A DNA stretch of 64,000 nucleotides from Acidobacteriota bacterium (GCA_019639255.1 JAHBSF010000006.1:26261-90260), one strand, 5' to 3'; counted from the stretch's first letter, positions 47,553 to 64,000 are shown. The notes: a model not told the origin generated them from the letters alone. Program-made: numbers and translations.

Positions 47553-47574
47553 GTACTCGGCGCGGAGAGTATGG

Positions 47575-49347: not shown

Positions 49348-50511
49348 ATGATGACCGATAAGGGGAAGAAGCCCACCAGACGGCAGTTTCTGAAGCATTC
49401 GGCGGCCGGAGCCGCAATAACGCTCTCGATTGAAAAAGATCCTCCCAGCGCTTCCGAGCCCGCAATCGAATCGGAGCCTACTGCTCTTGAGCAGGAAAAG
49501 CTGTTTATCGCCGATTCGCAAACTCACATATTCTGGCGGCGCGAGGGCCACGCGACGACTTCCGAGCGCGGATGGTGGTTCCTCAACCAGCTCGATACTT
49601 TCTATAAAGGAGCCGCCGGTCCCGAGGGCAGCGTCAAGGATCTTACAAAGGCCAAGTTTCTGGATCTCGTGCTGCGACAGAGCAACACAAGCGTTGCACT
49701 GCTTAATTGTCTTGCGCTCAAGGGATTCTACGGCGGGAAACACATGCTGACGCCCGCCGAGGCCGCCGAAGTGCGCGACATGATGCCCGAGCGGATCATC
49801 ATGCTCGGCAGCGTGGATCCGGCCGAGGGTAAAGCCGCTCTCGATGATCTCGAACGCCAGGTCAAACAATACAAGATCAACGGCATCAAGCTCTATCCGG
49901 GCGATTACAATCGCGGCGGCTGGTATGGGGATGATGAAAAAATCGCCTATCCGTTGTGGGAAAAATGCCGACAACTTGGCGTCAAGTACATCGCCGTTCA
50001 CAAGGGATTGCCGTTCTCGATCTTCAACGCAAAATACTGCCACCCGGAAGATTTCGACAAACCGCTCGATGATTTCCCGGATCTCAACTTCGTCCTCTAC
50101 CACTCGGCTTACCCGTTCCTCGACGAACTGACGATGATGTCTTTCCGCCTGACGGGCAGGAAAAGCAATCTTTACGTCGATCTCGGCGGACTGTTCGTTA
50201 TCCTTATGCAGGCCCCGCACGAACTCGGGCACACGATGGGCAAGCTTCTGAAATACCTCGGGTCCGATCACATCATTTGGGGCAGCGATGCGCCCATAAC
50301 GGGTTCGCCTCAACCCTTCATAGACTTTTTCCTGAAGTACAGGATTCCGGACGAACTCGTAGAGAAGTACGGTTATCCGCAGATCACCGATGAAGACAAG
50401 CGCAAGATCATCGGCGGCAACATCGCGAGGCTCTTTAATATCGACGTCGAGGCGAAGATGAAAAAGATCGCCTCGGACATCGTCTCGCGCTCGCGGGAAA
50501 TTCGCGTATGA
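49348..50511 (+). CDS. amidohydrolase-2 family (ACMSD/LigW-like metal-dependent hydrolase/decarboxylase) with twin-arginine signal peptide
   Basis: N-terminus MMTDKGKKPTRRQFLKHSAAGAAITLSI (RRxFLK Tat motif plus h-region). The rest is a PF04909-type TIM barrel (HIFW, HKG, YHSAYP, WGSDAP motifs). SD AGGAG 5 nt before the ATG. Confidence 0.7.
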   Translation: MMTDKGKKPTRRQFLKHSAAGAAITLSIEKDPPSASEPAIESEPTALEQEKLFIADSQTHIFWRREGHATTSERGWWFLNQLDTFYKGAAGPEGSVKDLTKAKFLDLVLRQSNTSVALLNCLALKGFYGGKHMLTPAEAAEVRDMMPERIIMLGSVDPAEGKAALDDLERQVKQYKINGIKLYPGDYNRGGWYGDDEKIAYPLWEKCRQLGVKYIAVHKGLPFSIFNAKYCHPEDFDKPLDDFPDLNFVLYHSAYPFLDELTMMSFRLTGRKSNLYVDLGGLFVILMQAPHELGHTMGKLLKYLGSDHIIWGSDAPITGSPQPFIDFFLKYRIPDELVEKYGYPQITDEDKRKIIGGNIARLFNIDVEAKMKKIASDIVSRSREIRV

Positions 50512-50523
50512 ACCTGGTTTAAT

Positions 50524-50686
50524 CGATCCACATCAGATTGGTACAAAGCGTGATAAAGCAAGAGAGATGACGGAACAAACGAAATGAAACGAAAATTACG
50601 GAAAATTTGAATATTTTTGTAGTTTCCGTCTTATTTCGTTTGTTTCGTCATCTCTCTTCGAAGTCGTGTGGAGTGATTCAATCGAG
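50524..50686. repeat. family-A element A12 (full length with both tails)
   Basis: ...CACATCAGATTGGTACAAAGCGTGATAAAGCAA, core GAGAGATGACGGAACAAACGAAATGAAACGAAAATTACGGAAAATTTGAATATTTTTGTAGTTTCCGTCTTATTTCGTTTGTTTCGTCATCTCTC, then TTCGAAGTCGTGTGGAGTGATTCAATCGAGC. Followed by TAAGGAG and the ATG at 50703. Confidence 0.85.
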
Positions 50687-50702
50687 CTAAGGAGCAACAG
50701 TT

Positions 50703-51449
50703 ATGACACAGCAACAAACGGCGGCGAATGCGCCGGCAAAACCTTGGGATTGCGCTTCGGCCGATGAACTCATTCTGAAACTGCGCGCCTATCGCGACGA
50801 GCGTCACGTCGCCGACCACCCCTTTACGCAGGCTCTGGCCGAGGGGCGCGTCAGCCGCGAGGGTGTGGTCGGATATCTGGGGCAATTCTGCGTATACGTA
50901 GAGCGCGGCGGCAAGGCGTGGCTGCCGTGGCTGCTCGGCAACGTTCCCGTAGGACTCGAATACCGACAGGCCAAAAACGTATTGCTCGAAAATCTTTGGG
51001 GTGAGTTTCACACTCCCGCCGATCACGTAGACCTGCTGCTGGATATGGCGGAAAAGGCATTCGGAGCCGACCGAAACGCGCTTTACCATTCGACGCTGCT
51101 GCCCGAAACCATCGCATTTATGCGCATAGAGGAGTATTACGCTCACGACCGTCCGTGGGTCGAAGCTATGGTGGCTCTCGGTTTCGGGCTTGAAACGCAG
51201 AGCCCGCGTTATTTCACGGCCGTGCGCGACGCGATGGTCGACAAGTACGGAATGACGGATTCGTATTATTACGATATGCACATCACGGCCGACATCGAGC
51301 ACGGAGACAGCATAGAGATGCTTATGAGGAATTACGGCAAGCCGGAAAATCGGGAATCGATGTGGCGCGCCGCTACCGAATCGATCGAAGCCTATCAGCT
51401 CTGGCACGACGGACTCTACCGCGCCTACGTCAGCGGCAAAAGACTCTGA
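50703..51449 (+). CDS. PqqC/TenA/CADD-like heme-oxygenase-fold protein ('iron-containing redox enzyme family')
   Basis: HVADHPFTQALAEGRVSREGVVGYLGQFCVYVE ... LENLWGEFHTPADHVDLLLDMAEKAFG parallels the PqqC helix-bundle signature (HPF...ENL-dE-G...H). Confidence 0.65.
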   Translation: MTQQQTAANAPAKPWDCASADELILKLRAYRDERHVADHPFTQALAEGRVSREGVVGYLGQFCVYVERGGKAWLPWLLGNVPVGLEYRQAKNVLLENLWGEFHTPADHVDLLLDMAEKAFGADRNALYHSTLLPETIAFMRIEEYYAHDRPWVEAMVALGFGLETQSPRYFTAVRDAMVDKYGMTDSYYYDMHITADIEHGDSIEMLMRNYGKPENRESMWRAATESIEAYQLWHDGLYRAYVSGKRL

Positions 51450-51464
51450 AACGCCCTAAACCGA

Positions 51465-51534
51465 ACTGGGTACGCACGCGCCCTCGCGTGCGTTCGGCTG
51501 AGAATGAAAGCACGCGAGGGCGCGTGCGTACCCA
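51465..51534. repeat. family-C GC-rich hairpin repeat, copy C2
   Basis: CTGGGTACGCACGCGCCCTCGCGTGCGTTCGGCTGAGAATGAAAGCACGCGAGGGCGCGTGCGTACCCAG. The right flank (GTTGCGGACTCCGTAGTGTGTACCA...TGTGGATTGATTTAG) is the inverted counterpart of the C1 left flank. Confidence 0.85.
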
Positions 51535-51658
51535 GTTGCGGACTCCGTAGTGTGTACCATTCTGCTGTGGATTGATTTAGGGTTTGATCCGTTATCTCAC
51601 TTCTACTGATTCCTTCGGGGAGGTATTTCTGGCGCACCAGAGTGCACAATCTGAAAGC

Positions 51659-53275
51659 ATGCAGTTTGAGCATCCGGTTGCTGAACGGCTGCTGGGTCGA
51701 TTGCTTGCGGCTCGCGCTGCACGCTACGGCGATCGGCGTTTCCTCAGTTTCAGGGGCGACCAGGAAATTTCGTACCGCGACCTGGACCTGTCGGCCAACC
51801 GTTTTGCAAACGGTCTGCGCGCCTTGGGACTCAACCACGGCGGCAAGCTCGCCGTCATGTTGCCGAACTGTCCGGAATATCTTTCGCTGCTTTTCGGAGC
51901 AGCCAGACTGGGCGCGGTCACCGTGCCGATCAATACCGCCTACAAGGGCGATCTGCTCGCACACATCATAAATAACTCCGACGCAGAAATGCTGGCGCTC
52001 GATGTCCAGTACCTGGAATCCCTGAACAATATAGCGGATCGGTTGAACAACCTCAGGACGATAATTTTATATTCTGCGGCTGAAGATGCAATTTCGGAGC
52101 CCGGCCTGCTGAAGGACAGGTACAAGTTCTACCACATCGGTTCGTTGGGAGCAGCGCTGGCGGATGAGCCCGAAGCCGATGTACGTCATACCGATCCGGT
52201 GATGATTCTTTATACGGGCGGGACGACGGGGCCGTCCAAGGGCGTAGTGATGACGCATCACTTTTATTACTTCTACGCCCGGCTGGTTGCGCAAAGCATA
52301 GGTTATCGGGAGTCGGATGTCTCCTATACCTGTATGCCGCTTTTTCACATAAACGCACAGATCGGTTCGATCGTATCGGCGTTGTATGCCGGGGCGCAGG
52401 CAGCTCTATATGAACGATTCAGCGCCGGTTCGTTCTGGGATGAGATATGCGCATCCGGGGCGACCGTTTTTCTGGGAATGGGCGCCGTAGGCAATATACT
52501 TATGAAAAACGCTCCATCGCCCGCCGACGCCGACAACAAAGTACGGCTTGCGGTCATCGTGCCGCCGCCCGGAGACCTGGAGGGTTTTGAAAAGCGGTTC
52601 GGTTTGCGGGTGATTTACGAAACTTTCGGCATGACCGAAGGTCTGATCATTCCGCCGAAACTGGTAGAACCGCGACGCCCAGGTTGTTGCGGAAAGCCCG
52701 TGCCGGATTACGAGGTGCAGATTGTAGACGACGACGATTCCGCGCTCCCCGCGCGCGAGGTCGGAGAAATAGTCATGCGTCCGCGCGCACCCTACACGAT
52801 GATGTCGGGCTATTACAAAATGCCCGAAGCCACGCTCGAAGCCTTTCGCAATCTGTGGTTCCACACCGGCGACCACGGTTACTTCGACGAAGAGGGATAC
52901 CTTTACTACGTGGGCCGAAAAAAGGACGCAATCCGCAGGCGGGGCGAAAACATCTCCGCCTTCGAAATCGAAAGTGCGGTCAATCAGCATCCTGCGGTAC
53001 TCGAATCCGCCGCAATCGCGGCTCCGTCGGAACTGGGCGAAGACGAGGTGAAGATTGCAGTCGTATTGAAACCGGGCATGCAGGTTGGGCATGAAGAGCT
53101 GATCAGATTCTGCGAAGCGAGGATGGCGTATTTCATGGTTCCGCGATTCGTGGAATTCAAGGACGCGCTGCCCAAAAATCCCTCGCAGCGGATCGAAAAG
53201 TACAAGCTGCGCGCCGAGGGCGTGAACGCCGCGACGTGGGATCGCGAAAAAGCGGGCGTAAAACTCAAGAGATGA
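51659..53275 (+). CDS. AMP-binding acyl-CoA synthetase (FadD/long-chain fatty-acid--CoA ligase-like)
   Basis: YTGGTTGPSKGV (AMP-binding P-loop), the EGYLYYVGRKKD hinge, and C-terminal GEEL / KYKLR motifs. Start taken at the first ATG; the track ORF begins upstream at a TTG. Confidence 0.85.
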   Translation: MQFEHPVAERLLGRLLAARAARYGDRRFLSFRGDQEISYRDLDLSANRFANGLRALGLNHGGKLAVMLPNCPEYLSLLFGAARLGAVTVPINTAYKGDLLAHIINNSDAEMLALDVQYLESLNNIADRLNNLRTIILYSAAEDAISEPGLLKDRYKFYHIGSLGAALADEPEADVRHTDPVMILYTGGTTGPSKGVVMTHHFYYFYARLVAQSIGYRESDVSYTCMPLFHINAQIGSIVSALYAGAQAALYERFSAGSFWDEICASGATVFLGMGAVGNILMKNAPSPADADNKVRLAVIVPPPGDLEGFEKRFGLRVIYETFGMTEGLIIPPKLVEPRRPGCCGKPVPDYEVQIVDDDDSALPAREVGEIVMRPRAPYTMMSGYYKMPEATLEAFRNLWFHTGDHGYFDEEGYLYYVGRKKDAIRRRGENISAFEIESAVNQHPAVLESAAIAAPSELGEDEVKIAVVLKPGMQVGHEELIRFCEARMAYFMVPRFVEFKDALPKNPSQRIEKYKLRAEGVNAATWDREKAGVKLKR

Positions 53276-53281
53276 CCGGAA

Positions 53282-54451
53282 GTGCGCGAATTGAAAGGCA
53301 AACTGGCGATTGCCGGTGCAGCAACAAGCGAGGTCGGACGTGTGGCCGGTCTTTCGGCTACTCAAATGTGCGTCAAGGCATCCCGCCTCGCAATGATCGA
53401 CGCGGGACTCTCGGCGGCCGACGTTGACGGCGTGATCACGGCGAACTCGTGGTCCGAGCCGCACTACTATCACGCCGAATGGATTGCCGAATATCTGGGC
53501 GCAAGACCCAGATATTGCTGGACTGCGGCAACGGGCGGTGGAACGATCGTAGCCGCCCTTCACCACGCGGCGAGCGCAATTGAAACCGGTCTTTGTCAAA
53601 CGGTGCTTATAGCGGCGGCCGACAACTGGCTGAGTGCGTTTTCACGTGAACGGATGGTCGAACTGATGGCCGCCAACGCGGGGCATCCGCAGTTCGAGGT
53701 TCCATACGGCAGCTTTGTGCCTGCTCTTTACGCTCTTTTTGCGCAGGCTCACTCTCAGAAGTACGGCGTGAGCGAGCGCCAGTACGCCCGTGTAGCGGTG
53801 GCTGCGCGCCGACATGCAGCGTTGAACGCCGAGGCTCAGATGCGCGAACCCATAACGGTTGACGATGTATTGACTTCGAAACCGGTGGCGTCGCCCCTGC
53901 GGTTGCTCGATTGCGCCCTGATTTCGGATGGGGGCGCGGCGGTCGTGATGACGAGCGCACAGCGCGCTCGCGATTTGAAAAACCTGCCCGTTTACCTTTT
54001 GGGTGCAGGTGAAGCGCACGAGCACGAACACGTCACGCAGGCCGTGTGTTTGCACAGAACGGCGGCAACCGAATCGGGCGCCGCAGCATTCGCAATGGCG
54101 GGACTGAAGCCCTCGGATATGGATTGCGCGATGCTGTACGATCCGTTCACCTTCGCCGTTGTAATGTTTCTTGAAGATCTGGGATTTTGCGCAAGAGGCG
54201 AGGGCGGCGCGTTTGTCGAGGACGGTCAGATCGAACTTGGCGGAAGCCTCCCGGTAAACACCCACGGAGGGTTGCTGTCGTTTGCTCATCCCGGCAATCC
54301 GGGCGCGTTGTTTCACATAGTAGAAGCGGTGCGGCAGTTGCGCGGCGAGTGCGGAGAACGCCAGGTCCGGAAAGCTTCAACCGCGCTCGTTCACGCCGAG
54401 GGGGGCATAATGTCCACCCACGCGACCGTCATTCTGGGCAATGCAAAATAG
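53282..54451 (+). CDS. thiolase-like protein, SCP-x / nsLTP type (no canonical N-terminal Cys-acyl site)
   Basis: 389 aa thiolase fold with C-terminal NTHGGLLSFAHPGNPG (thiolase C-terminal GG motif) and GEAHEHEH. Typical of DUF35-partnered thiolases. GTG start. Confidence 0.8.
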   Translation: MRELKGKLAIAGAATSEVGRVAGLSATQMCVKASRLAMIDAGLSAADVDGVITANSWSEPHYYHAEWIAEYLGARPRYCWTAATGGGTIVAALHHAASAIETGLCQTVLIAAADNWLSAFSRERMVELMAANAGHPQFEVPYGSFVPALYALFAQAHSQKYGVSERQYARVAVAARRHAALNAEAQMREPITVDDVLTSKPVASPLRLLDCALISDGGAAVVMTSAQRARDLKNLPVYLLGAGEAHEHEHVTQAVCLHRTAATESGAAAFAMAGLKPSDMDCAMLYDPFTFAVVMFLEDLGFCARGEGGAFVEDGQIELGGSLPVNTHGGLLSFAHPGNPGALFHIVEAVRQLRGECGERQVRKASTALVHAEGGIMSTHATVILGNAK

Positions 54452-54470
54452 TTTCGGGGTAACCAGGATC

Positions 54471-54761
54471 ATGCCGATTTACGAATACCAGTGCGAAAGC
54501 TGCGATCTCATATACGAGGCGATGCAGTCGATCAGCGCCGCCCCGCACGAAGTTTGCCCCGAATGCAGCGGGCGGCTCGAACGAATATTTTCACCGCCGT
54601 CATTGAATCTCGGGCATTTCGTAAGCGGAACTGCCGAAAAACACACGCGCAGGCTGACCTTCGAGCAGCAGGCCAAAGAGGAAGAGGACCGATTGCTCAA
54701 GCACGCGGAAAAGACAGGGATCAAATACAGCGATCTGTTCGAAGATCACGAGCATCATTGA
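54471..54761 (+). CDS. FmdB-family zinc-ribbon protein
   Basis: MPIYEYQCESCDLIYE...CPECSG (CxxC...CxxC), 96 aa, from Met11 of track ORF 54441..54761. Confidence 0.75.
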   Translation: MPIYEYQCESCDLIYEAMQSISAAPHEVCPECSGRLERIFSPPSLNLGHFVSGTAEKHTRRLTFEQQAKEEEDRLLKHAEKTGIKYSDLFEDHEHH

Positions 54762-54820
54762 TCGTTTCAGTCCCGGAGCCGGCGAAGTCAGAAAACGCAG
54801 AGTTCTGGATATTTCCTGAA

Positions 54821-55582
54821 ATGCGCGAAACGGGTTTTGAACAACTGATCTATGAAAAACAGGGACCCGTGGTCAGAATTACGCTCAATCGCCCGGATCA
54901 GCTAAACGCGCTCAGCATAGAGTTGTACACAGAACTCGGTGACGCAGTTTTGCGCGCCGGGAGCGATGCCGAGGCTCAGATCATTGTCATAACCGGTGCG
55001 GGACGGGCTTTTTCAAGCGGCGGCGACATCAAGCAGGGTGATCGCGTAAATCGCGAAACTCCGCAGATATTCGCACAGGCGTCGAAACGCATGCTATCGG
55101 CGATCATCAAGAGCGATTGCGTTGTCATCGCACAGGTCAACGGTACGGCGCAGGCCGGAGGATTGTTGATTGTCGCCGCCTGCGATCTGGCGATCGCTGC
55201 GGAGGATGCTACCTTCAAATGCCCCGAAGCGTTGATAGGGCTTTACGAACCGTACAGTCACGCGCTGCTCGCGCCGATCATCGGATCTCGCAGAACAAAG
55301 CAGCTTTTGATTGCCTGCGAAACAATCGGCGCCATCGACGCCGAACGAATGGGACTTGTCAACCGTGTAGTGCCGCGCGAGGATCTCGGCGCTGCTACCG
55401 ACAAACTCATCGAGCGTGTACTTGCAACGGGTCCCCGCGCCCGCGCCATGTTCAAGCGAATGATCAACCGTTCTATTGAAGAGTTCGACGAAAATATAGT
55501 TATAGAGGCGCTCGGTTCGGAAGAGGGACAGGAAGGTATGGCTGCATTCGCCGAAAAACGGTTGCCCAAATGGCGGCAATAA
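54821..55582 (+). CDS. enoyl-CoA hydratase/isomerase (crotonase) family protein
   Basis: VVRITLNRPDQLNAL...VITGAGRAFSSGGDI...VAQVNGTAQAGGL...A-E, the crotonase oxyanion-hole motifs. The real start is at Met111 of track ORF 54491..55582; the upstream part overlaps FmdB out of frame. Confidence 0.85.
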   Translation: MRETGFEQLIYEKQGPVVRITLNRPDQLNALSIELYTELGDAVLRAGSDAEAQIIVITGAGRAFSSGGDIKQGDRVNRETPQIFAQASKRMLSAIIKSDCVVIAQVNGTAQAGGLLIVAACDLAIAAEDATFKCPEALIGLYEPYSHALLAPIIGSRRTKQLLIACETIGAIDAERMGLVNRVVPREDLGAATDKLIERVLATGPRARAMFKRMINRSIEEFDENIVIEALGSEEGQEGMAAFAEKRLPKWRQ

Positions 55583-55620
55583 TCACGGGCAATGGGCCTT
55601 GCTTTGAACTTGCTTTGAAA

Positions 55621-56055
55621 ATGACTGTAGTCGCTGAAAAAAGTCGGAAACCGATCAGAGAAGGGTTGTTTGCGGAAGATGCGAACGGCGTGAGTCTGAT
55701 CGGCGGGCGGTGTCGGGAATGCGCTGAAATCGTATTCCCCGCCAATCCCTTTTGCCCGCGGTGCTGTCGCGAGACGACCGAACCCGTTGCACTCTCTCGG
55801 CGCGGAGTGCTTTACAGCTTCACCGTGCAGCGTTTCAAACCGCCGCCGCCATATCGCGGACCCGATCCTTTCGTCCCGTACGGCGTAGGTCTGATAGAAC
55901 TGCCCGAGGGGCTGCGCATAACTTCGGTGCTCAAGGCGGAACCGGACGACCTTCGCGTCGGGATGGAAATGGAGCTAGTGGTCGAGGGGTTTTTCGAGGA
56001 CGAGGACGGCAACGAAATACTGGGCTACAAGTTTCGCCCGGTGGAAGAGAGATAA
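55621..56055 (+). CDS. DUF35 Zn-ribbon + OB-fold protein (thiolase partner; ChsH2-C-term/IpfE-like)
   Basis: GRCRECAEIVFPANPFCPRCC (rubredoxin-like Zn ribbon) followed by an OB-fold segment. The last codons and stop (...EER*) are encoded by repeat A13. Confidence 0.75.
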   Translation: MTVVAEKSRKPIREGLFAEDANGVSLIGGRCRECAEIVFPANPFCPRCCRETTEPVALSRRGVLYSFTVQRFKPPPPYRGPDPFVPYGVGLIELPEGLRITSVLKAEPDDLRVGMEMELVVEGFFEDEDGNEILGYKFRPVEER

Positions 56056-56170
56056 CGGAACAAACTAAATAAGTCGGAAACTACGAAAATATTCAACTTT
56101 TCCGTGATTTTTGTTTCATTTCGTTTGTTTCGTTATCTCTTATGCCCCAGTGACGAGCAGAGTGATTTAG
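56047..56170. repeat. family-A element A13 (core plus right tail)
   Basis: GAGAGATAACGGAACAAACTAAATAAGTCGGAAACTACGAAAATATTCAACTTTTCCGTGATTTTTGTTTCATTTCGTTTGTTTCGTTATCTCT, then TATGCCCCAGTGACGAGCAGAGTGATTTAG abutting the ATG at 56171. Confidence 0.85.
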
Positions 56171-57307
56171 ATGAGAGACGTTTATGTAATCGGTGTAGGG
56201 CTGCATCCCTTCGGTCGTTTCGGCGACAAGGATGTCATCGAGATAGGGCGCGAAGCCGTTGTAGCCGCGCTCGAAGACTCGGGAGTTGCATGGAAGGATG
56301 TGGAATCGGCTTACTGCGGCACGGTATTCGCCGGGCCGATGGCGGGCAACAAGGTGCTGGCGCGCGTCGGTTTGACCGGATTGCCTATTATGAATCTTGA
56401 AAATGCATGTGCAAGCGGCGGATCGGCGCTGCGGCTGGCATTTCAGGATGTGGCGAGCGGTTTCTGCGATATTGCGCTGGCGTTCGGTTTCGAAAAGATG
56501 CCGCGCGGTTTTATCGCCGGAAATCCCAACGACTGGTTTGCGACGATGGGAATGGCGGTCAATCCGCAGTATTTTGCGCTCAACGCTCGCCGGCATATGG
56601 CGGATTACGGAACAACCGAGGACCATCTTGTCAGGGTTTCGGTCAAGAATCACCGCAACGGCGCTCTCAATCCGTATGCTATGTATCGGAAGGTGATGAG
56701 CTACGAAGAAATCGCCAACTCGACGATGGTGAACGATCCGCTGCGATTGCTGATGCTGTGCGCGCCGAATGAGGGCGGCGCCGCCGTCGTGGTGGCGAGT
56801 CGGGAGGCGGCTAAACGGTATACGACGCGGCTGATTCGCCTGGCGTCGGTTGTGCTGAAGTCGCCGCTCTACGGAACGGCGGAGGTTCCATACATCGCTG
56901 TAAGTTCACAAGTAGAAGCCCCGAGCGTGACGCGCACGGCATCCGAGGCGGCTTACGAAGCGGCCGGCATCGGCCCCGGCGATCTCGATCTGGTAGAACT
57001 TCAGGATACGGATTCTGCGGCCGAGATCATATACAGCGAAGAACTCGGATTATGCGGGCGCGGCGAAGGTGCACGGCTGCTCGACGACGGCGCCACCGAA
57101 ATCGGCGGGCGCTTGCCCGTGAATCCCAGCGGCGGACTTTTGTCGAAGGGTGAACCGCTCGGCGCCTCTGCACTCGGACAGGTTGCGGAAGTCGTATGGC
57201 AGTTGCGCGGTGAGGCCGGCGCCCGCCAGGTGAGCGATGCGCGCGTCGGTTTGACGCACGTATACGGCGCGCTCGGCAATTGTGCGGTGAGCATACTTCA
57301 ATGTTGA
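56171..57307 (+). CDS. thiolase-like protein, SCP-x type (second copy)
   Basis: MRDVYVIGVGLHPFGRF...NLENACASGGSALRLA (active-site Cys) ... NPSGGLLSKGEPLGASAL... and the thiolase C-terminal domain. Confidence 0.85.
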   Translation: MRDVYVIGVGLHPFGRFGDKDVIEIGREAVVAALEDSGVAWKDVESAYCGTVFAGPMAGNKVLARVGLTGLPIMNLENACASGGSALRLAFQDVASGFCDIALAFGFEKMPRGFIAGNPNDWFATMGMAVNPQYFALNARRHMADYGTTEDHLVRVSVKNHRNGALNPYAMYRKVMSYEEIANSTMVNDPLRLLMLCAPNEGGAAVVVASREAAKRYTTRLIRLASVVLKSPLYGTAEVPYIAVSSQVEAPSVTRTASEAAYEAAGIGPGDLDLVELQDTDSAAEIIYSEELGLCGRGEGARLLDDGATEIGGRLPVNPSGGLLSKGEPLGASALGQVAEVVWQLRGEAGARQVSDARVGLTHVYGALGNCAVSILQC

Positions 57308-57367: not shown

Positions 57368-58096
57368 ATGTCAGCGAGATTACAACCCGCCACCGAGGCA
57401 ATGCCGGTGGATCAGTTTCTTGGAGAACTGCTATCATTCATCGAAGAGCATCATCCGAAAAACAGCAAAATGATTCGCGCCATCTCTGAGGGAACTGCGT
57501 CGATGCAGGCCATACAGGGATTCGCAAGGGAGTTTTACGCCTACTCGGCGTTTTCCCTACGGCCGTTCGCTGCACTTGTTTCGAATGCGCCCGACGATTT
57601 TTCCTTGAAGCTGATGCTTCAGAACTTCGCCGGCGAGGCCGGGTTTCTGGGCACGCCGTCGCATCCGGTCGTATTCCGCCAGTTTGCTCTCGCTGCGGGA
57701 CTCAGCGACGAAGACCTCGATACTCACATTCCGCTTCCGAGTACGCTGGGTGGAATGTTCGGACTGGATCATTTTCTGCGGGGACCGTTTGATGAGGCGG
57801 TAGCCGGGTTTGGTTATGCGATCGAGGGGCCGGCGGCAGCCTGGGGGAAGCTCCTGCACGACGGATTCAAGAACAAATACAACTTCGACGAAAAAGCCAT
57901 GCAGTTCTGGGTCATTCATCTCGAAGAGGACGAATCGGGCGAGGGCCTCGAAGCGCAGCACGGCGAAAATGCCAGAAAACTGATGCAGCGCTTTGCGTCA
58001 ACTCTCGAACAGCAGACGCGCATTCGCAAGGCGTTCGTATACTCGGCGCTTGTTTTTGAAAACTTCTGGAACGGAATGGACCGGTTTCTTGAGTAG
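57368..58096 (+). CDS. PqqC/TenA-like heme-oxygenase-fold protein (second copy)
   Basis: HHPKNSKMIRAISEGTASMQAIQGFAREFYAYSAFSLRPFAALVSNAPDD...LQNFAGEAG...SHPVVFRQFALAAGL closely parallels the PqqC HPF...ENL.EE.G...SH...F...GL pattern. Confidence 0.65.
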   Translation: MSARLQPATEAMPVDQFLGELLSFIEEHHPKNSKMIRAISEGTASMQAIQGFAREFYAYSAFSLRPFAALVSNAPDDFSLKLMLQNFAGEAGFLGTPSHPVVFRQFALAAGLSDEDLDTHIPLPSTLGGMFGLDHFLRGPFDEAVAGFGYAIEGPAAAWGKLLHDGFKNKYNFDEKAMQFWVIHLEEDESGEGLEAQHGENARKLMQRFASTLEQQTRIRKAFVYSALVFENFWNGMDRFLE

Positions 58097-58160: not shown

Positions 58161-59507
58161 ATGAGTGTAGCCGATGAATGCGTAAAGAACCTGTACCATC
58201 CCGAAGTTCAGACGATGCCTCGCGAACAGTTGCGTGAACTTCAGAACGAAAAGCTGCGCCGCGAAATAGACCGTATATGGAATCAGCCGATTTCATTCTT
58301 CAAGCGCAAGATGGAATCCGTAGGATTGCGTCCCGAACACATTCGCACCGTTGACGATCTCAGGAATTTCCCGCCAACAGTCAAGGATGAGCTTCGGGTA
58401 AACGAAGAAAGCTACCCACCGTTCGGCGATTATCGCGGAGCACCCGTAGAGAAGTGCATTCGCCTGGGTCGTACTACGGGAACAACGGGCAAGCCCTCAT
58501 CGCTGCTATGGACGCAGCGCGATTATGATATCGATGCTCTGATTTCCGCGCGTTCGATGTACCGGTGCGGCATCCGCCCCGGCATGAAAATGACGCACAC
58601 TCATCCGGGCGGACTCTACGCGGGCGCCGACCGCCTCGGCTCCGTCGTCGAAATGATGGGCGTGATGAACGTGCCTATGGGGCCGCCGCTATCGGATGAC
58701 ATAATAAAGAGCCATCTCGAATTGTGGAAACAGCTCAAACCCGAAGTGTATGTGCTGTTCGGCCCCGTCGTGCTGCGGTATCACGAAGCTGCGCTGAAAC
58801 TCGGCTACGATCCGCACAAGGATATCGGGATGGACATACTGCTCATAGGCGAGGCCGCGTGCGCCTATGAATCGACTCGTAAGAAGTACGAGAAGTTCTT
58901 CGACTGCGAGATTCACAACCTCAACGGCTCGCTCGAAATCGGCGTGATTATGGCAAGCGACGACCGGTTCCATACCGGGATGTATGCGCCCGAGGATTTC
59001 GTAATTCTCGAAGTCATTGATCCCGACACGAATGAACCTACGCCGCCCGGCGAGCGCGGATACCTGTGTTTGACGACCCTCGACCGCGACAACATAGTCG
59101 TTCGCTATAACCTCGAAGACCTGGTGAGCGTCAATCCCGAACCGTCGCCGTCGGCGGAAACCCACACCAGGTTTTACTGGCACGGCCGGCGTCAGGAAGT
59201 TGTGAACGTTAACGGCAAGGAGATTCTGCCCGTGGACGTGATGGTTGCGCTCAATGAAATCGAGGAACTCGGCGAGCGGCCCGTCGAGTTTCAGATGGAG
59301 CGTTGGGGCAAGACGCAGGACAGGCTCAAGGTGAATATGGAGTATGACCCGGCGCGCGTATCGGATACAACGGCGTTCTCCGACAAGGTTAGAGCGCACT
59401 TTCATCGGAAACTCGGCATCGATGTAGTGCCGGAGCTCGTGGACTCGGCGGTTTACCGCTCCACGTACAAGCCGATGCGCGTCATAGACGTCAAACACGA
59501 AGAATAA
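58161..59507 (+). CDS. PaaK-like adenylate-forming CoA ligase (phenylacetate-CoA ligase / coenzyme F390 synthetase family)
   Basis: N-terminal LREIDRIW...ESVGLRPEHIRTVDDLRNFPPTVKDEL and TTGTTGKPS (the PaaK P-loop variant). No large C-terminal AMP-binding_C domain. From Met57 of the track ORF, with SD AAGGAG 8 nt upstream. Confidence 0.8.
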   Translation: MSVADECVKNLYHPEVQTMPREQLRELQNEKLRREIDRIWNQPISFFKRKMESVGLRPEHIRTVDDLRNFPPTVKDELRVNEESYPPFGDYRGAPVEKCIRLGRTTGTTGKPSSLLWTQRDYDIDALISARSMYRCGIRPGMKMTHTHPGGLYAGADRLGSVVEMMGVMNVPMGPPLSDDIIKSHLELWKQLKPEVYVLFGPVVLRYHEAALKLGYDPHKDIGMDILLIGEAACAYESTRKKYEKFFDCEIHNLNGSLEIGVIMASDDRFHTGMYAPEDFVILEVIDPDTNEPTPPGERGYLCLTTLDRDNIVVRYNLEDLVSVNPEPSPSAETHTRFYWHGRRQEVVNVNGKEILPVDVMVALNEIEELGERPVEFQMERWGKTQDRLKVNMEYDPARVSDTTAFSDKVRAHFHRKLGIDVVPELVDSAVYRSTYKPMRVIDVKHEE

Positions 59508-59510
59508 AAA

Positions 59511-59566
59511 TACAGATAACGGAATATACGAAAAAGAACGGAACAAACGGAAAGCAAGGAGAACAA
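59511..59566. repeat. family-A element A14 (half copy, left arm)
   Basis: CAGATAACGGAATATACGAAAAAGAACGGAACAAACGGAAAGCAAGGAGAA. Its end supplies the SD (AAGGAGAA) of the next gene. Confidence 0.7.
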
Positions 59567-59568
59567 TA

Positions 59569-60798
59569 ATGAGCGCCGTTCAATTCGCGCACGACACAGC
59601 AGACGTGCTCTCGGCACTTCAGCGGCAGATTGCACACAATTACACGATTCCTTTTTACCGCAAACGCATGGATGAGTGGGGCGTCAGGCCCGAGGATATC
59701 CGCAGCTTCGATGACTTTCGGCGCATTCCCATGATGAAGCGCGAAGATCAGGTATCGAGCGTCGATGAAGATCCCCCGCTCGGCAGCATGTGGAACCCCG
59801 ACGCCGTTCTGATTACCCATACTCCGGCGCCGGGCATAGGTCTTGTTACCGAGTATCATACAAGAGCCGATATCGACGCCTGCGCCGTGGCCGTAGCGAA
59901 GCGGCTGGCTGCCGCCGGGGTGACGAAAGACGACATTGTAGTCATCAACTCGAGCTACCACCTGGTTATATCCGGACATACGGGACAGGCGGCATTCACC
60001 GAACTCGGCGCCAAGGTTTTGCCTCTGGGACCCGGCGAGACCGAACGACAGGTGGAGATTATCAACCGCCTCGGCGCCACGGTGCTTTTCGGGTTTCCGA
60101 GTTATTGCCTGAAACTTGCCGAAGCCGGAGCGAGGGGCAAAATCCGCGTGATGATCGCGGGCGGCGAGCCGTTCAGCTCAATAGAAGGCCGGCGCGAACA
60201 GGTTAAAAACGCGTTCGGGGGCGGGATTACCGCCGTAGATCTTTACGGATTGAGCGGCTTCAACGTCGTTGCGATGGAAGACCGGCGCGAAAACGGGATG
60301 CGTATTCTGGAAGATGAGGTCTACGCCGAAATCATCGATCCCGAAACCGGCGACCTGCTGCCTTACGGCGAGCGCGGAGAACTGGTGCTGACGCACGTGA
60401 ACCGTCAGGCGATGCCGTTTATGCGTTTCAGAACCGGAGACCTGACGGTGCTGGACCGCACCGACGGCGAGCTTTATATGCCCAACGGCGTGTTCGGGCG
60501 CACGGGCGAGATGTACCGCGTCAAGGGATTGAAGTTCTATCCCTCGGTCGCGGTGTTGTGCCTTGCGGGGATTCAGGGAGTACATCCGCTCAAGTACCGA
60601 TTCACGATTTCGAGGCCTTCCGGGACTACCGATTACGTCAAATTCGCGGTGCAGGGCAATCCCTCAGCCGTGGATGCTGAAGTGGTCAAAAAGAAGATCG
60701 GGCTCAGAACCCTTTTTGAACCCAACGAAGTCGAAATCATCGAGCAGTGGGTTGACGGCCCGACTGTAGTGGACGAGCGCGGCGGAGTAGATCGTTGA
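59569..60798 (+). CDS. PaaK-like adenylate-forming CoA ligase (second copy)
   Basis: YRKRMDEWGVRPEDIRSFDDFRRIPMMKREDQ ... SGHTGQAAF ... same architecture as the upstream paralogue. About 409 aa. Confidence 0.8.
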   Translation: MSAVQFAHDTADVLSALQRQIAHNYTIPFYRKRMDEWGVRPEDIRSFDDFRRIPMMKREDQVSSVDEDPPLGSMWNPDAVLITHTPAPGIGLVTEYHTRADIDACAVAVAKRLAAAGVTKDDIVVINSSYHLVISGHTGQAAFTELGAKVLPLGPGETERQVEIINRLGATVLFGFPSYCLKLAEAGARGKIRVMIAGGEPFSSIEGRREQVKNAFGGGITAVDLYGLSGFNVVAMEDRRENGMRILEDEVYAEIIDPETGDLLPYGERGELVLTHVNRQAMPFMRFRTGDLTVLDRTDGELYMPNGVFGRTGEMYRVKGLKFYPSVAVLCLAGIQGVHPLKYRFTISRPSGTTDYVKFAVQGNPSAVDAEVVKKKIGLRTLFEPNEVEIIEQWVDGPTVVDERGGVDR

Positions 60799-60802
60799 CA
60801 GG

Positions 60803-60876
60803 AGAACGCGGAATACGCTGAATTTAGCGAGCGGATAGACTTTTCCGTTATATTCCGCTTATTCCGCGTTCTCTCT
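60803..60876. repeat. divergent palindromic element A15 (variant arms GAGAACGCGGAATA...TATTCCGCGTTCTC)
   Basis: GAGAACGCGGAATACGCTGAATTTAGCGAGCGGATAGACTTTTCCGTTATATTCCGCTTATTCCGCGTTCTCTC. Confidence 0.6.
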
Positions 60877-60900
60877 GCAATCGCCATACGGGATAATCGG

Positions 60901-61674
60901 ATGAGCGGAAACGTGCTGGAAAAATTCAGACTCGATGGTAAGACGGCCATCGTAACGGGTGCGAGCCGCGGGCTCGGGCGCGCAATCGCGGTTGCGTTTG
61001 CCGAAGCGGGAGCCGATGTAGCTGTAGCGGCGCGCACCGAGGCCGCAATCGCTGAAACCGCTGAAGCCGTAAGGAGCCTCGGGCGGCGCGCCCTTGCAGT
61101 GGCGTGCGATGTACACAGCAGCGCGTCGGTGGCCTCGATGGTCGAGGGCGTTGTATCCGAATTCGGTAAGGTCGACATACTGATGAACAACGCGGGCGGC
61201 GGCGATATGCGGCCGCTTGTGGATACCGACGAGTCTGAATGGATGCGCATCATTGATCTCAATCTGAATTCGACCTACCGGCTGTGCCGCGCCGTGGGGC
61301 CGCATATGATCGCCAGGCGCTACGGCCGGATAATCAATATGTCGTCGACCTACGGGCTAGTGGGAGTCAAAAATGTAGTCCCGTATTGCGCTGCCAAGGG
61401 AGCGATTATCCAGTTTACGCGGGCGCTGGCGCTCGAATGGGCCGAGCACAACATATCGGTGAATGCGCTTGCGCCCGGTTATTTCTACACCGAACGCACG
61501 AGCCGCGTCTTCGACGATCCGACGCTCGGCGCAAAATTCACCGCCTCGATTCCTGCAGGACGTGTGGGCCAAAACGACGAACTTGCGCCGCTCGTGGTGT
61601 ATCTCGCATCGGACGCGTCGCCCTATATGACCGGCAGCGTCATAGTTATCGACGGGGGCATTACGGCTGCCTGA
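60901..61674 (+). CDS. SDR-family oxidoreductase (FabG-like)
   Basis: TGASRGLGRAIA (TGxxxGxG), NNAGG, and the S...Y(CAAK) catalytic motif. Confidence 0.85.
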   Translation: MSGNVLEKFRLDGKTAIVTGASRGLGRAIAVAFAEAGADVAVAARTEAAIAETAEAVRSLGRRALAVACDVHSSASVASMVEGVVSEFGKVDILMNNAGGGDMRPLVDTDESEWMRIIDLNLNSTYRLCRAVGPHMIARRYGRIINMSSTYGLVGVKNVVPYCAAKGAIIQFTRALALEWAEHNISVNALAPGYFYTERTSRVFDDPTLGAKFTASIPAGRVGQNDELAPLVVYLASDASPYMTGSVIVIDGGITAA

Positions 61675-61785
61675 ATCCGCATATACGGTCTTGTTTTTTG
61701 GGGATATGAGGTGACTGGCCAATCAGTCATGACGGAAATGAAAATGAAGCGGAAGAGGGAGCAGCGGGAATTGCGGAAAAGGTGA

Positions 61786-61866
61786 ATGGTTCCGCTGGTT
61801 CCGTCAATTTTCGTTTGTTCCGTTATCTCTCTTTTACGTCCCGGGATCATCTGGATTGATCTGGAC
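61786..61866. repeat. family-A element A16 (right arm plus tail; left arm decayed)
   Basis: GTGAATGGTTCCGCTGGTTCCGTCAATTTTCGTTTGTTCCGTTATCTCTCTTTTACGTCCCGGGATCATCTGGATTGATCTGGACG. Confidence 0.75.
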
Positions 61867-61879
61867 GCGGAATTGGACG

Positions 61880-63070
61880 ATGGATCTGAAATATACGCCC
61901 GAGGAAGAGCGATTCAGGAATGAGGTCAGGGAGTGGTTGCAGGCTAACCTTCCCGCCGAGCGGCCCGAGGTGTCGGAATCGGAAAACATGGATGAATGGA
62001 TGGCTTTCCTGCGGAACTGGCAGCGGAAGTTGTCGGATGCGGGATGGGCCGGAATAGCCTGGCCGAAGGAGTACGGCGGGCGCGGCGCCGGTGTAAACGA
62101 ACAGTTGATCTTTACCGAAGAAATGGCGCGAGCAAAGGCGCCCAATCTGATGAATGTGAGCATCGGCATAGAGCTTGTAGGTCCCGCTCTGATGCATCAC
62201 GGCGCCGAGGCGCAGCGACGGCGTTACCTCCCGAAGATTCTTTCGGCCGAGGAAGTATGGTGTCAGGGATTCTCCGAGCCGGGCGCGGGCTCCGATCTGG
62301 CCTCGCTTCAAACACGCGCCGTAATCGACGGCGATCGCTTTATCGTCACGGGCCAGAAGGTATGGACGAGTTGGGCCGAATATTCGGATCATTGCATCCT
62401 GCTCGTTCGCACCGACGCGTCGGCGCCCAGACACAAGGGCATCAGTTGTCTTCTCGTGGATATGCGCAGCCCCGGAATAACGGTCAGGCCGACTCGACAG
62501 ATTACGGGCGAAACCGAATTCAGCGAGGTGTTTTTCGATGGGGTGGCGGTTCCCCGCGAAAACCTCGTAGGCGAGATCAACGGAGGGTGGGGCGTCGCCA
62601 TGACGGTATTGATGCACGAGCGCGGCACATCGGCCATAGGCTATCAGATCCGCCTCAGATCCGAACTCGACGAACTGATGGAGCTGGCAAAAAGGATCGA
62701 GAAAAATGGCCGCCCCGCATCTGCCGATCCCCTGATTCAGCAGAAGCTCGCGCAGAGTTTCATCGAGGTCGAGATACTCAAATACAACATTTATCGCAGC
62801 GCAACTCAGATTGCACGCAACGGCAGCCCCGGTCCCGAGAGCTCGATAATAAAACTCTTCTGGAGCGAGATGGACCGAAGGCAGAAGGAGGTCGCAATGG
62901 AATTGATGGGGTTGCGCTCCCAACTCGTCAGGGGATCGAAGGGAGCGGTGGATCACGGACGCTGGCAGCGGGCTTTTCTCTGGTCGCGCGCAGGCACGAT
63001 CTACGCCGGTAGCTCTGAAATTCAGCGCAATATCATAGCCGAGCGCGTACTCGGGTTGCCCAGAGGTTGA
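61880..63070 (+). CDS. acyl-CoA dehydrogenase
   Basis: MDLKYTPEEERFRNEVREW...GFSEPGAGSDLASLQT...FLWSRAGTIYAGSSEIQRN (ACAD N/M/C domains). From Met9 of the track ORF. Confidence 0.85.
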   Translation: MDLKYTPEEERFRNEVREWLQANLPAERPEVSESENMDEWMAFLRNWQRKLSDAGWAGIAWPKEYGGRGAGVNEQLIFTEEMARAKAPNLMNVSIGIELVGPALMHHGAEAQRRRYLPKILSAEEVWCQGFSEPGAGSDLASLQTRAVIDGDRFIVTGQKVWTSWAEYSDHCILLVRTDASAPRHKGISCLLVDMRSPGITVRPTRQITGETEFSEVFFDGVAVPRENLVGEINGGWGVAMTVLMHERGTSAIGYQIRLRSELDELMELAKRIEKNGRPASADPLIQQKLAQSFIEVEILKYNIYRSATQIARNGSPGPESSIIKLFWSEMDRRQKEVAMELMGLRSQLVRGSKGAVDHGRWQRAFLWSRAGTIYAGSSEIQRNIIAERVLGLPRG

Positions 63071-63073
63071 CCG

Positions 63074-64000
63074 ATGGATTTTGGATTCACACCCGAACAG
63101 GAAATGATTCGCGGTCAGGCGGCCGAGTTCTTTCGCCGCGAATGTCCGACGGCCGTCGTGCGCGGGCTTATGGAGGGTGAACGCGCACACAGCGAACAGA
63201 TGTGGCGGAAAATGGCCGAACTCGGATGGATGGGGCTCGTCTTTCCCGAAGAATTCGGCGGAGCCGGGTTGTCGATGGTCGAACTCTCGATCGTGCTCGA
63301 AGAAATGGGGCGCGTGCTTGCACCCGGAACCTACTTTTCTACAGTCGTGCTCGGCGGATTGTTGTTGCAGTCGGCCGCCAGCGCGGAACAGAAACGCAGG
63401 TGGCTTACTCCGATTTGCGAGGGGGAACTCAAGGCCACGCTTGCACTCTATGAAGAACACGAATGTCCGGGGCCGGAAGGAATCCGGGTCCGGGCAGAGA
63501 ACATAGACGGCGGCTTTGCAATCTCGGGGAAAAAGTTTTTTGTGCCCGACGCCGAGGTTGCCGATCTGATCATTTGCGCGGCGAAAACGAATTCCGCCGA
63601 AGATCGAGTGACGTTGTTTGCCGTAGACCGCAAACTCGATGGCGTAAACATCACGCCGCTACGGACGATGGACCAAACGCGCTCGTTGTACGAGGTGTCG
63701 TTTGAGAGCGTGCGTGTAGACGAATCGTGCGTAATCGGGAGTGAAGGCGGCGCCTGGCCTGTGATCGGGCGCGCGCTGGATCTGGCCGCAGTAGGCTTGA
63801 GTGCGCAAATGGTTGGCGGGGCGCGCAGTGTACTTGAAATGTGCGTCGAATTCCTGAAGACGCGCGAGCAGTTCGGCCGCAAGATCGGATCGTTTCAGTC
63901 GCTCCAGCATCGCTCGGCGGACATGCTCCTGCTAACGGAAAGCGCGAAATCGGCTGTATACGCCGCGAGTTGTGCGGCGAGCGATGACGCCCCGGATTTG
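63074..64000 (+). CDS. acyl-CoA dehydrogenase (second copy; 3' end beyond window)
   Basis: Manual translation from the ATG at 63074: MDFGFTPEQEMIRGQAAEFFRREC...MGLVFPEEFGGAGLSMVELSIVLEEMGR..., an ACAD N-terminal domain. The ORF runs off the window so it is absent from the track. Confidence 0.8.
   Translation, partial: MDFGFTPEQEMIRGQAAEFFRRECPTAVVRGLMEGERAHSEQMWRKMAELGWMGLVFPEEFGGAGLSMVELSIVLEEMGRVLAPGTYFSTVVLGGLLLQSAASAEQKRRWLTPICEGELKATLALYEEHECPGPEGIRVRAENIDGGFAISGKKFFVPDAEVADLIICAAKTNSAEDRVTLFAVDRKLDGVNITPLRTMDQTRSLYEVSFESVRVDESCVIGSEGGAWPVIGRALDLAAVGLSAQMVGGARSVLEMCVEFLKTREQFGRKIGSFQSLQHRSADMLLLTESAKSAVYAASCAASDDAPDL

Follow-up and report, generated by a model that had tools for sequence, protein, structure and literature searches.

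Two Predicted Diiron Proteins of the Heme Oxygenase Fold Embedded in a Conserved Cluster of Coenzyme A–Dependent Enzymes from Acidobacteriota

The 64,000-nucleotide stretch of DNA analyzed here (the window), from an Acidobacteriota bacterium (GCA_019639255.1, JAHBSF010000006.1:26261-90260), carries at positions 49348-64000 a run of 14 genes, all on the + strand and separated by spacers of -13 to about 210 nt, as determined by an open reading frame listing and Pfam searches. Pfam agrees with all 14 family assignments made in a preliminary description of the sequence. Together with one further gene beyond the window, these genes form what is, on balance, probably a conserved, operon-like catabolic cluster of 15 genes that degrades a bulky ring-bearing or branched carboxylic acid as its coenzyme A (CoA) thioester under oxic conditions. 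CoA-dependent catabolic operons are a known type of system; the unusual element in this one is an embedded, lineage-specific pair of heme oxygenase (HO)-like diiron-type proteins, accompanied by remodeled partner enzymes.

The count of 14 genes given in the preliminary description is correct for the window, but a fifteenth gene lies past its end. The last gene, for an acyl-CoA dehydrogenase (ACAD) termed ACADb, runs off the window, and a GenBank record from a Blastocatellales metagenome-assembled genome (MAG; JAHCHF010000006.1, GCA_026129895.1) matches the window over 16,633 bases with 99.45% identity (91 substitutions, no indels). Because the sequences are not identical, the window represents a sister strain or assembly of this record. 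There, the full ACADb (377 aa) is followed by a third ACAD (ACADc, 381 aa) and then by a gene for a TonB-dependent-receptor-like outer-membrane protein; the third ACAD past the window end therefore makes this a cluster of 15 genes. One of the 91 substitutions, which fall within window positions 47368-64000 (compared as locus L093), is an Ala/Val exchange in ACADb.

The gene order is kept in at least 14 independent contigs, taken from metagenomes (L002, L005, L007, L009, L010, L012, and L066) and from seven species-representative MAGs of GTDB (L086-L092), which was scanned with two peptide patterns. Identity to the window ranges from 43% to 89% per gene. Recurrence of the same order across these contigs argues against chance adjacency and provides the conservation of the neighborhood that the preliminary description had proposed to look for. 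The hosts are Blastocatellia or Pyrinomonadaceae MAGs or metagenomes, and one MAG labeled Clostridia. The contig of the latter (L087, CAZOOE010000059.1, “uncultured Clostridia bacterium”) contains the entire cluster, which is 43-82% identical to its Blastocatellia counterparts; the contig is probably mis-binned or mislabeled.

Comparison of these loci divides the cluster into two modules, which are separate in some genomes. Module A comprises the genes for an Amidohydro_2 protein (AH2), HO1, a FadD-like acyl-CoA synthetase, a thiolase-fold protein (Thl1), and a zinc ribbon protein (ZnR). The core of module B comprises a crotonase, a DUF35 protein, a second thiolase-fold protein (Thl2), HO2, two PaaK-like ligases (PaaK1 and PaaK2), a short-chain dehydrogenase/reductase (SDR), ACADa, and ACADb; it is present at every locus spanning it, with its own SDR missing from L091. 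Module B also takes in ACADc. In L091 and L092 the core is not preceded by the five module A genes, and other amidohydrolases stand in place of the AH2 and HO1 orthologues in L089. A single-polypeptide EtfB-EtfA fusion of about 635-645 aa, related to electron-transfer flavoprotein (ETF), adjoins the cluster in two MAGs (L089, 17924-19825; L092, 5431-7362). In five related loci (L012, L088, L091, L092, and L010), an HpaB-type flavin monooxygenase gene is inserted directly upstream of ACADa, following the SDR gene in four and PaaK2 in L091, and the HO-fold proteins are therefore not always the sole oxygenases. A reading of this HpaB-like protein as 4-hydroxybutyryl-CoA dehydratase was rejected, as it has only three Cys residues, none of them near the Fe-S ligand positions of AbfD, which we take to be Cys99 and Cys103. 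The L012 locus (8184-20628), and in part L088 and L091, runs on with a second SDR, a metallo-β-lactamase-fold protein, a Thl1-like protein, a DUF35 protein, and MaoC; L012 alone further adds a fusion of a hydroxymethylglutaryl-CoA synthase (HMGCS)-like protein with DUF35 (465 aa), a thiolase, an ACAD, and a SnoaL-like protein.

The two HO-fold proteins occupy one position in each module. HO1 (50703..51449) and HO2 (57368..58096) score 80.5 and 56 bits against Haem_oxygenas_2 (PF14518, cut-off 28.9 bits), and judged by sequence and structural models they are HO-like diiron-type enzymes, CADD-like in the case of HO1 and CADD/BesC-like in that of HO2. AlphaFold2 models were obtained with predicted local distance difference test (pLDDT) scores of 86 and 91.7, respectively. 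Foldseek ranked CADD first for both, followed by PqqC, BesC, UndA, HrmI, and FlcD, with template modeling (TM) scores to CADD of 0.76/0.86 for HO1 and 0.80/0.90 for HO2, and of 0.77/0.83 between HO2 and BesC. In HO1, the residues aligned to the metal ligands of CADD are invariant in 24 orthologues (E101, H108, E164, H193, and D197) or conserved in at least 90% (H200); in HO2, four residues (E90, H99, E153, and E195) are invariant and two more (H184 and H198) reach at least 90% conservation. The predicted metal-ligand set is thus complete in HO1 and probably so in HO2. An inspection of these ligands, suggested in the preliminary description, hence finds a conserved E/H/E/H/D(E)/H pattern in both proteins, and since this is the set carried by HO-like diiron oxidases, HO1 and HO2 plausibly supply oxygen chemistry. 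No Rieske or P450 oxygenase was found in the window, as had been described.

The two proteins share 20% identity with each other. HO1 orthologues make up one cluster among 1.84 billion representatives of 50% clusters, and the next relative is 34% identical; a tblastn search of a plasmid collection gave no match for HO2 and relatives of HO1 at 26-27% only. The earlier label “PqqC/TenA-like” holds for the fold (Foldseek, PF14518) but not for membership in the PqqC or TenA family: scores against PF03070 (TENA/PqqC, cut-off 22) are 20.6 for HO1 and 19.1 for HO2. TIGR04305, which represents CADD-type para-aminobenzoate (pABA) synthases, gives 55.9 and 53.4 bits against a cut-off of 200, and sacrificial residues of CADD are replaced (Tyr27 by Thr and Lys152 by Val in HO1; Tyr27 by Ile in HO2). 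Neither pqqABDE nor thiamin genes were found in the window or its flanks, and the window holds no pqq operon. Based on these scores, the loss of the CADD residues, and the neighborhood, assignment of HO1 and HO2 as PqqC, TenA, or pABA synthase was rejected; nor are they the ordinary TenA or PqqC of a pyrroloquinoline quinone (PQQ) operon, the outcome that the preliminary description had named as fatal to its proposal.

Two tandem HO1-like diiron-type genes, 31-34% identical to HO1, occur in another lineage, probably Proteobacteria (L097, 1-14563; L098, 1-5440). Their neighbors encode an acyl-CoA ligase, an Amidohydro_3 protein, a flavoprotein resembling old yellow enzyme and dienoyl-CoA reductase, a DUF1302/DUF1329/BNR/RND uptake set, and a Fer2-FNR reductase. 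These loci represent a second uncharacterized HO-fold/CoA cluster. An HO1-type protein thus recurs in company with a ligase and an amidohydrolase, which links HO1 in function to the activation of carboxylates.

The remaining proteins of module A begin with AH2 (49348..50511; Amidohydro_2, 105.7 bits), the first gene of the module, which carries a Tat (twin-arginine translocation)-type signal, TRRQFLK. In the orthologue alignment its first metal motif is Q-x-H rather than H-x-H, and its sole relative in the PDB is 3irs, an uncharacterized BB4693 protein (E = 6e-11). The FadD-like class I acyl-CoA synthetase (51659..53275; AMP-binding, 241 bits, and AMP-binding_C; 538 aa in the gene call of the GenBank record) is matched best by PRK06155 in NCBIfam, with 556 bits against a cut-off of 722, and by oxalyl-CoA synthetase and FadD13 in the PDB (about 1e-59). 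Thl1 (53291..54451; Thiolase_C_1, 207 bits) has an SCP-x thiolase fold resembling the aldolases Ltp2 and Sal. Its Cys nucleophile is missing (A/GTGGGT), and it has a YDPF motif. PDB matches are 4u4e (3e-93), CtSal (9myr, 5e-65), and TcLtp2 (6ok1, 2e-58), and its best characterized relatives are the steroid aldolases CtSal and TcLtp2; the catalytic Tyr of the YDxF motif is kept, with Pro at the x position, which is His in Ltp2 and Cys in Sal. In Ltp2 the second catalytic residue is Tyr344, with His296 in the oxyanion hole; in Sal it is Cys304. The neighbor of Thl1 is not a DUF35-MaoC protein but ZnR, an FmdB-type CxxC...CxxC zinc ribbon of 96 aa (54471..54761; Zn_ribbon_8, 55 bits), which always follows Thl1 in the synteny comparison.

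Module B opens with the crotonase (54821..55582; ECH_1, 180 bits). Its first catalytic Glu is replaced by Leu (GGGxE to AGGLL), while the Glu of the PE motif is kept and a further Glu is conserved in L(Y/W)EPYS. The protein therefore lacks the two-Glu arrangement that marks a canonical enoyl-CoA hydratase, and its earlier reading as such does not hold; it scores similarly on models for BadI, MenB, and alternative oxepin-CoA hydrolase. The crotonase gene overlaps by 13 nt with that for the DUF35 protein (55570..56055; OB_ChsH2_C and zf-ChsH2), a stand-alone Cys4 zinc ribbon plus oligonucleotide/oligosaccharide-binding (OB) fold whose sole NCBIfam match is BbsA (72.6 bits against 250). Next comes Thl2 (56171..57307; Thiolase_C_1, 130 bits, and Thiolase_N), with an SCP-x/BbsB-like thiolase fold. 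Thl2 keeps the Cys nucleophile (NACASG) and has lost both catalytic His residues (HDCF to QDTD; GHP to GEP), losses conserved in all four orthologues aligned. Its PDB relatives are SCP2-thiolase (1e-71), BbsB (3e-65), and PhlC (1e-19), and it scores 243.6 bits on the BbsB equivalog model, which has a cut-off of 750. The residues expected of a thiolytic SCP-x enzyme, namely the Cys, the His of HDCF, and the His of GHP, are thus found together in neither Thl1 nor Thl2.

Of the two PaaK-like proteins, both with a partial AMP-binding match, PaaK1 (58161..59507) is an adenylating ligase of the PaaK family with an intact P-loop (TTGTTGKPS), and PaaK2 (59569..60798) is a PaaK-fold paralogue in which the P-loop is gone (SSGTTGKPT to TPAPGIGLV). 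On TIGR02155, the PaaK model with a cut-off of 646 bits, they score 158 and 184, and the window contains none of the PaaA-E genes. Relatives in the PaaK family include FlxY, BagE, and 6hdw, which activates 2-hydroxyisobutyrate. PaaK2 belongs to a widespread, P-loop-less family with a conserved C-terminal VxDxR(Y) end, which extends to archaea, Deinococcus, and Paraburkholderia (L094, 8001-9176; L095, 8001-9149; L096, 8001-9197). In the two members of this family whose neighborhoods were inspected, from a MAG and from Deinococcus, the gene adjoins a Liv-type ABC transporter with an embedded long AMP-binding gene. PaaK2 of the window lineage and of L002 is without a PCxCG insertion seen in more distant orthologues, and PaaK1 of the window alone reads PEPSPSAETH where its orthologues, including that of L002, read PDPCPCGETH; from the sequences, this looks like the loss of a probable Cys motif.

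The module ends with a classical SDR of 257 aa (60901..61674; adh_short), which passes one generic SDR subfamily model (PRK07231), and with the ACADs. ACADa (61880..63070) and ACADb (63074..64000), both recognized by ACAD domains, are separated by 3 nt. In ACADa the Glu of a HER motif is present as in ChsE4, the canonical YEG reads YAG, and the closest PDB relative is ChsE4 of M. tuberculosis (4x28, 5e-63), which belongs to the ChsE4-ChsE5 heterotetramer acting on the cholesterol side chain; ACADb has DR and WEH, with no Glu at either catalytic position. An adjacent pair in which one member alone has the catalytic base characterizes the α2β2 ChsE4-ChsE5/PimCD type, and ACADa and ACADb are thus predicted to be the catalytic large and noncatalytic small subunits of such a heteromer. 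Equivalence to PimCD is not indicated: ACADa scores 302 bits on PimC_large against 624, and the L012 orthologue of ACADb, on which this score was obtained, 234 on PimD_small against 653. ACADc has the canonical YEG. The two ACADs described earlier are hence two genes in the window but are read as one heteromeric enzyme, with a third ACAD past the window end. Loci retrieved through ACADa paralogues of 49-57% identity (L014-L085) were set aside as other clusters, as they are without HO-fold and PaaK genes.

From the observed protein families, active-site residues, folds, synteny, and taxonomic range, we infer every reaction, as well as the nature of the substrate, of the following model. In module B, PaaK1, perhaps paired with the P-loop-less PaaK2 in a heterodimer, would form the CoA ester, which the heteromeric ACADa/b would desaturate, passing electrons to ETF. 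The atypical crotonase and the SDR would handle the enoyl and hydroxy intermediates, and DUF35-scaffolded Thl2 may then carry out C-C cleavage or acyl transfer via an acyl-Cys. Module A could contribute a periplasmic hydrolytic or decarboxylating step by the predicted Tat-exported AH2, a second CoA activation by the FadD-like ligase, and a retro-aldol-type cleavage by Thl1, which resembles Ltp2 and Sal and is Cys-less. HO1 and HO2 would activate O2 at a diiron (or Fe/Mn) site for hydroxylation, desaturation, or oxidative C-C scission of the free acid or its CoA ester, and would thereby supply oxidations beyond the reach of a dehydrogenase.

Several features underlie this model. ETF-linked ACADs, a TonB-dependent receptor, a Tat-exported hydrolase, and two active ligases favor the oxidative breakdown of an imported acid over biosynthesis. 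A heteromeric ACAD, a DUF35-scaffolded thiolase fold, and an aldolase-like, Cys-less thiolase fold point to a bulky or tertiary-carbon substrate, comparable to steroid side chains or benzylsuccinate. By analogy, four features would also suit an aromatic or alicyclic acid that undergoes ring opening as its CoA ester: the ligase of the PaaK type, the HpaB-type hydroxylase present in some loci, the crotonase with its single Glu, and the PimCD-like ACAD. Such a route would run along the lines of Paa, Box, and Ali/Bad/Pim, but with diiron proteins of the HO fold in place of the ferritin fold. The aryl or branched character of the substrate is nevertheless inferred, as sequence data do not discriminate between substrate classes. 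The Cys-less and His-less thiolase folds, the one-Glu crotonase, and the P-loop-less PaaK are probably functional, since the changes are conserved in aligned orthologues. The preliminary description had three ligases activating an aryl or branched carboxylate that is then oxidized and cleaved thiolytically. Its gene content and the candidacy of the HO-fold proteins for O2 chemistry stand; the number of ligases that keep the ATP P-loop is two, PaaK2 being without it, and thiolysis is doubtful in spite of the thiolase-fold genes, with the nucleophile missing from Thl1 and both His residues from Thl2.

A number of observations weigh against catabolism of a CoA ester as drawn here. Because Thl1, Thl2, the crotonase, and PaaK2 are without canonical catalytic residues, the chemistry may not be β-oxidation-like, and no HO-like diiron enzyme is known to use a CoA ester. 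In HO2, an insertion of about seven residues between H184 and E195 (modeled as loop 186-193) breaks the H-x3-D-x2-H ligand helix. The Tat signal of AH2, textbook in its motif, scores 21.3 bits on TAT_signal, slightly under the cut-off of 22.7. The cluster contains no regulator, reductase partner, or CoA-transferase; its genes past position 64000 were read from the 99.45%-identical record and not from the window; and all hosts found belong to uncultured lineages, with no cultured host among them.

Could the cluster instead build a specialized metabolite or lipid, with PaaK-type loading of a starter, condensation or Friedel-Crafts acyl transfer by the thiolase and DUF35 proteins, and tailoring by the HO-fold enzymes? 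The characterized HO-like diiron enzymes are mostly biosynthetic, the Cys-only state of Thl2 is presumably also that of its detectable relative PhlC, FlxY and BagE are among the PaaK-like relatives, and L012 adds the HMGCS-like-DUF35 fusion and a thiolase downstream. Biosynthesis nevertheless appears unlikely: the three ACADs include a ChsE4/PimCD-like heteromer, with the fused ETF adjoining in two loci; the TonB-dependent receptor and Tat-exported hydrolase point to uptake and oxidation; there is no polyketide synthase, nonribosomal peptide synthetase, acyl carrier protein, methyltransferase, or exporter; and Thl2 is far nearer to SCP2-thiolase and BbsB than to PhlC. Within the catabolic reading itself, a hybrid attack on an aryl-CoA is a special case, in which HO1 and/or HO2 would epoxidize, hydroxylate, or dearomatize aryl-CoA or arylacetyl-CoA, and ring opening would fall to the one-Glu crotonase and chain degradation to the ACAD, SDR, and thiolase folds. 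The Paa and Box pathways follow such a logic, from a ligase and a diiron oxygenase (the ferritin-fold epoxidases PaaABCDE and BoxAB) to a crotonase-fold enzyme and β-oxidation-like enzymes, and the order of events would match. The ligases are of the PaaK family; ring-opening or isomerizing crotonases lack one Glu, as does the crotonase here with its similar scores on BadI, MenB, and oxepin-CoA hydrolase; the ACAD pair is similar to pimeloyl-CoA dehydrogenase, an enzyme acting on products of ring opening; and five relatives contain an inserted HpaB-type phenol hydroxylase. With no reductase component present, with a PaaK family that also activates small branched acids such as 2-hydroxyisobutyrate (6hdw), with no HO-like diiron enzyme known to act in this way on CoA esters or aromatic rings, and with an equally strong likeness to steroid side-chain enzymes (ChsE4, Sal/Ltp2), this special case is doubtful in its own right.

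Two simpler explanations fare worse. An ACAD, an enoyl-CoA hydratase homologue, an SDR, a thiolase, and an acyl-CoA synthetase constitute the standard set for ordinary fatty-acid β-oxidation, beside which the HO-fold, PaaK-like, and hydrolase genes might lie by chance. This is very improbable given an order that is kept, HO-fold genes included, in at least 14 contigs, catalytic-residue changes that are conserved in aligned orthologues and not random decay, and a heteromeric ACAD and DUF35 partner typical of bulky substrates. The notion that the HO-fold proteins have no connection with the CoA enzymes and are instead PqqC, TenA thiaminase II, or CADD-type pABA synthase can draw on the PqqC annotation given to them by JGI and on pABA synthases among their best PDB sequence matches. 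It is hardly credible in view of the sub-threshold family scores, the replaced CADD residues, the missing pqqABDE and thiamin genes, and the fixed place that each HO-fold gene holds among CoA-enzyme genes wherever its module occurs.

Degradation of an imported acid as its CoA thioester is therefore retained as the working model, and a tentative and unlikely extension of it would make HO1 and HO2 the first HO-fold diiron enzymes inside a CoA-thioester catabolic pathway. They would act on an acyl- or aryl-CoA, or on the acid just before ligation, as analogues of PaaABCDE and BoxAB in a third aerobic “hybrid” CoA route, with the remodeled thiolase-fold/DUF35 proteins, the one-Glu crotonase, and the P-loop-less PaaK serving nonstandard C-C chemistry. 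If an HO-like diiron pair does operate in an acyl-CoA degradation operon, the chemistry and physiology of that family would extend to catabolism. More generally, each “degenerate” member of a textbook family in the cluster is a candidate for new chemistry or for a scaffolding role. As a trait specific to a lineage of soil Blastocatellia that are abundant yet uncultured, the cluster could point to a recalcitrant organic acid that they use. It is an enzyme-discovery lead rather than a new kind of system, found so far only in the Blastocatellia/Pyrinomonadaceae MAGs and metagenomes of at least 14 contigs.

The spacers of the cluster contain palindromic repeats. A near-perfect copy of 95 nt lies between AH2 and HO1 (50562..50656; fold of -75.5 kcal/mol, z = -7.4) and another between DUF35 and Thl2 (56047..56141). 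Further copies occur at 1126-1220, 26260-26354, 37192-37286, 42288-42382, and 45024-45099, and single arms at 5528, 19054, 21566, 28669, 33653, 51582, 59530, and 61813. The arms start with GAGAGAT[GA]ACG[GA]AACAAAC, a sequence with 22 matches in the 64 kb, where 0.03 would be expected. Mostly about 95 nt long and intergenic, with five in cluster spacers, the repeats look like a genome-wide family of the REP (repetitive extragenic palindromic) or MITE (miniature inverted-repeat transposable element) kind that is not specific to the cluster. An Rfam search of positions 44000-64000 at E ≤ 1 returned no riboswitch, only sub-threshold matches to plant microRNAs, which are spurious since they fall on the palindromic repeats. 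Scans for promoters and terminators gave counts not clearly above those of shuffled controls. Upstream of the cluster lie housekeeping genes and, immediately before it (44863-48849), a sugar-acid unit made up of genes for a UxaE-type tagaturonate epimerase, an SDR, and a LarA-N-domain protein; this unit is separate from the cluster and is not syntenic with it at other loci.

The preliminary description recognized no characterized pathway in this gene combination, and further comparison agrees. Scans of 13 cluster proteins gave no score at or above an NCBIfam equivalog cut-off; Thl1 comes nearest, with 418.5 against 421 bits on a generic subfamily model. No account of the cluster was found in literature searches covering HO-like/diiron enzymes, DUF35, thiolase, PaaK, CoA, and Pyrinomonadaceae.

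Among known systems, the steroid side-chain pathway (ChsE4-ChsE5/FadE26-27; Ltp2 and Sal with the DUF35 domains of ChsH2 and Shy) resembles the cluster in its adjacent ACAD pair with one catalytic subunit, ACADa being nearest to ChsE4 and sharing its HER motif, in the Cys-less Thl1 with its conserved YDxF Tyr, and in the presence of DUF35. In contrast to that pathway, the window has no MaoC hydratase, and DUF35 is a stand-alone protein that adjoins Thl2 rather than Thl1. Thl1 has Pro in place of the His of Ltp2 or the Cys of Sal, no kshA, kstD, or hsa ring-degrading genes are nearby, and steroid pathways are not known to include HO-fold oxidases or PaaK-type ligases. The bbs operon (BbsAB, the SDR BbsCD, the ACAD BbsG, and the crotonase BbsH) likewise brings together DUF35, an SCP-x-type thiolase, an SDR, an ACAD, and a crotonase; the DUF35 protein has no NCBIfam match other than BbsA, and among the distinct PDB relatives of Thl2, BbsB ranks second. 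Scores nevertheless lie far below the equivalog cut-offs, Thl2 is without the two His residues that BbsB keeps, ligases take the place of the BbsEF CoA-transferase, and the context is oxic, with O2-dependent enzymes.

The Paa (PaaK, PaaABCDE, PaaG/F/H/J) and Box (BclA, BoxAB, BoxC) systems combine a CoA ligase, a diiron oxygenase, a crotonase-fold protein, and β-oxidation-like enzymes as the cluster does, and with Paa it shares ligases of the PaaK family. Its diiron proteins, however, have the HO fold and not the ferritin fold, the reductase subunit is not in the cluster, no equivalents of PaaZ or BoxC/D were recognized, and the PaaK scores are far below cut-off. Rhodopseudomonas palustris AliA/AliB/BadK/BadH/BadI and PimCD offer a similar PimC/PimD-like ACAD pair, SDR, and ligase, together with a crotonase score about equal on BadI and on hydratases; here, too, all scores fall below cut-off, the cluster has a single crotonase-fold gene, and the R. 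palustris pathway is without HO-fold enzymes and DUF35/thiolase-fold pairs. PhlABC and the archaeal thiolase/HMGCS/DUF35 complex share DUF35-scaffolded thiolase-fold proteins with the cluster, which in L012 is followed by the HMGCS-like-DUF35 fusion and a thiolase. PhlC, like Thl2, presumably relies on Cys alone. The window lacks a ketoacyl synthase (KAS) III or HMGCS-like subunit, however, and Thl2 is much nearer to SCP2/BbsB than to PhlC.

The HO-like diiron oxidases and oxygenases (CADD, BesC, UndA, SznF, HrmI, FlcD, and AetD) correspond to HO1 and HO2 in fold (TM scores of 0.76-0.90 to CADD) and in the E/H/E/H/D(E)/H ligands. HO1 and HO2 differ from them in that structural alignments give at most 20% identity to any characterized member, in the insertion in the ligand helix of HO2, and in their setting, which is a CoA-thioester catabolic operon and not an amino-acid-based biosynthetic cluster. 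Because defining features were looked for and not found, we do not assign the cluster to the steroid side-chain, bbs, paa, box, pim, or phl systems; judged from sequence, it would work most like a hybrid of them.

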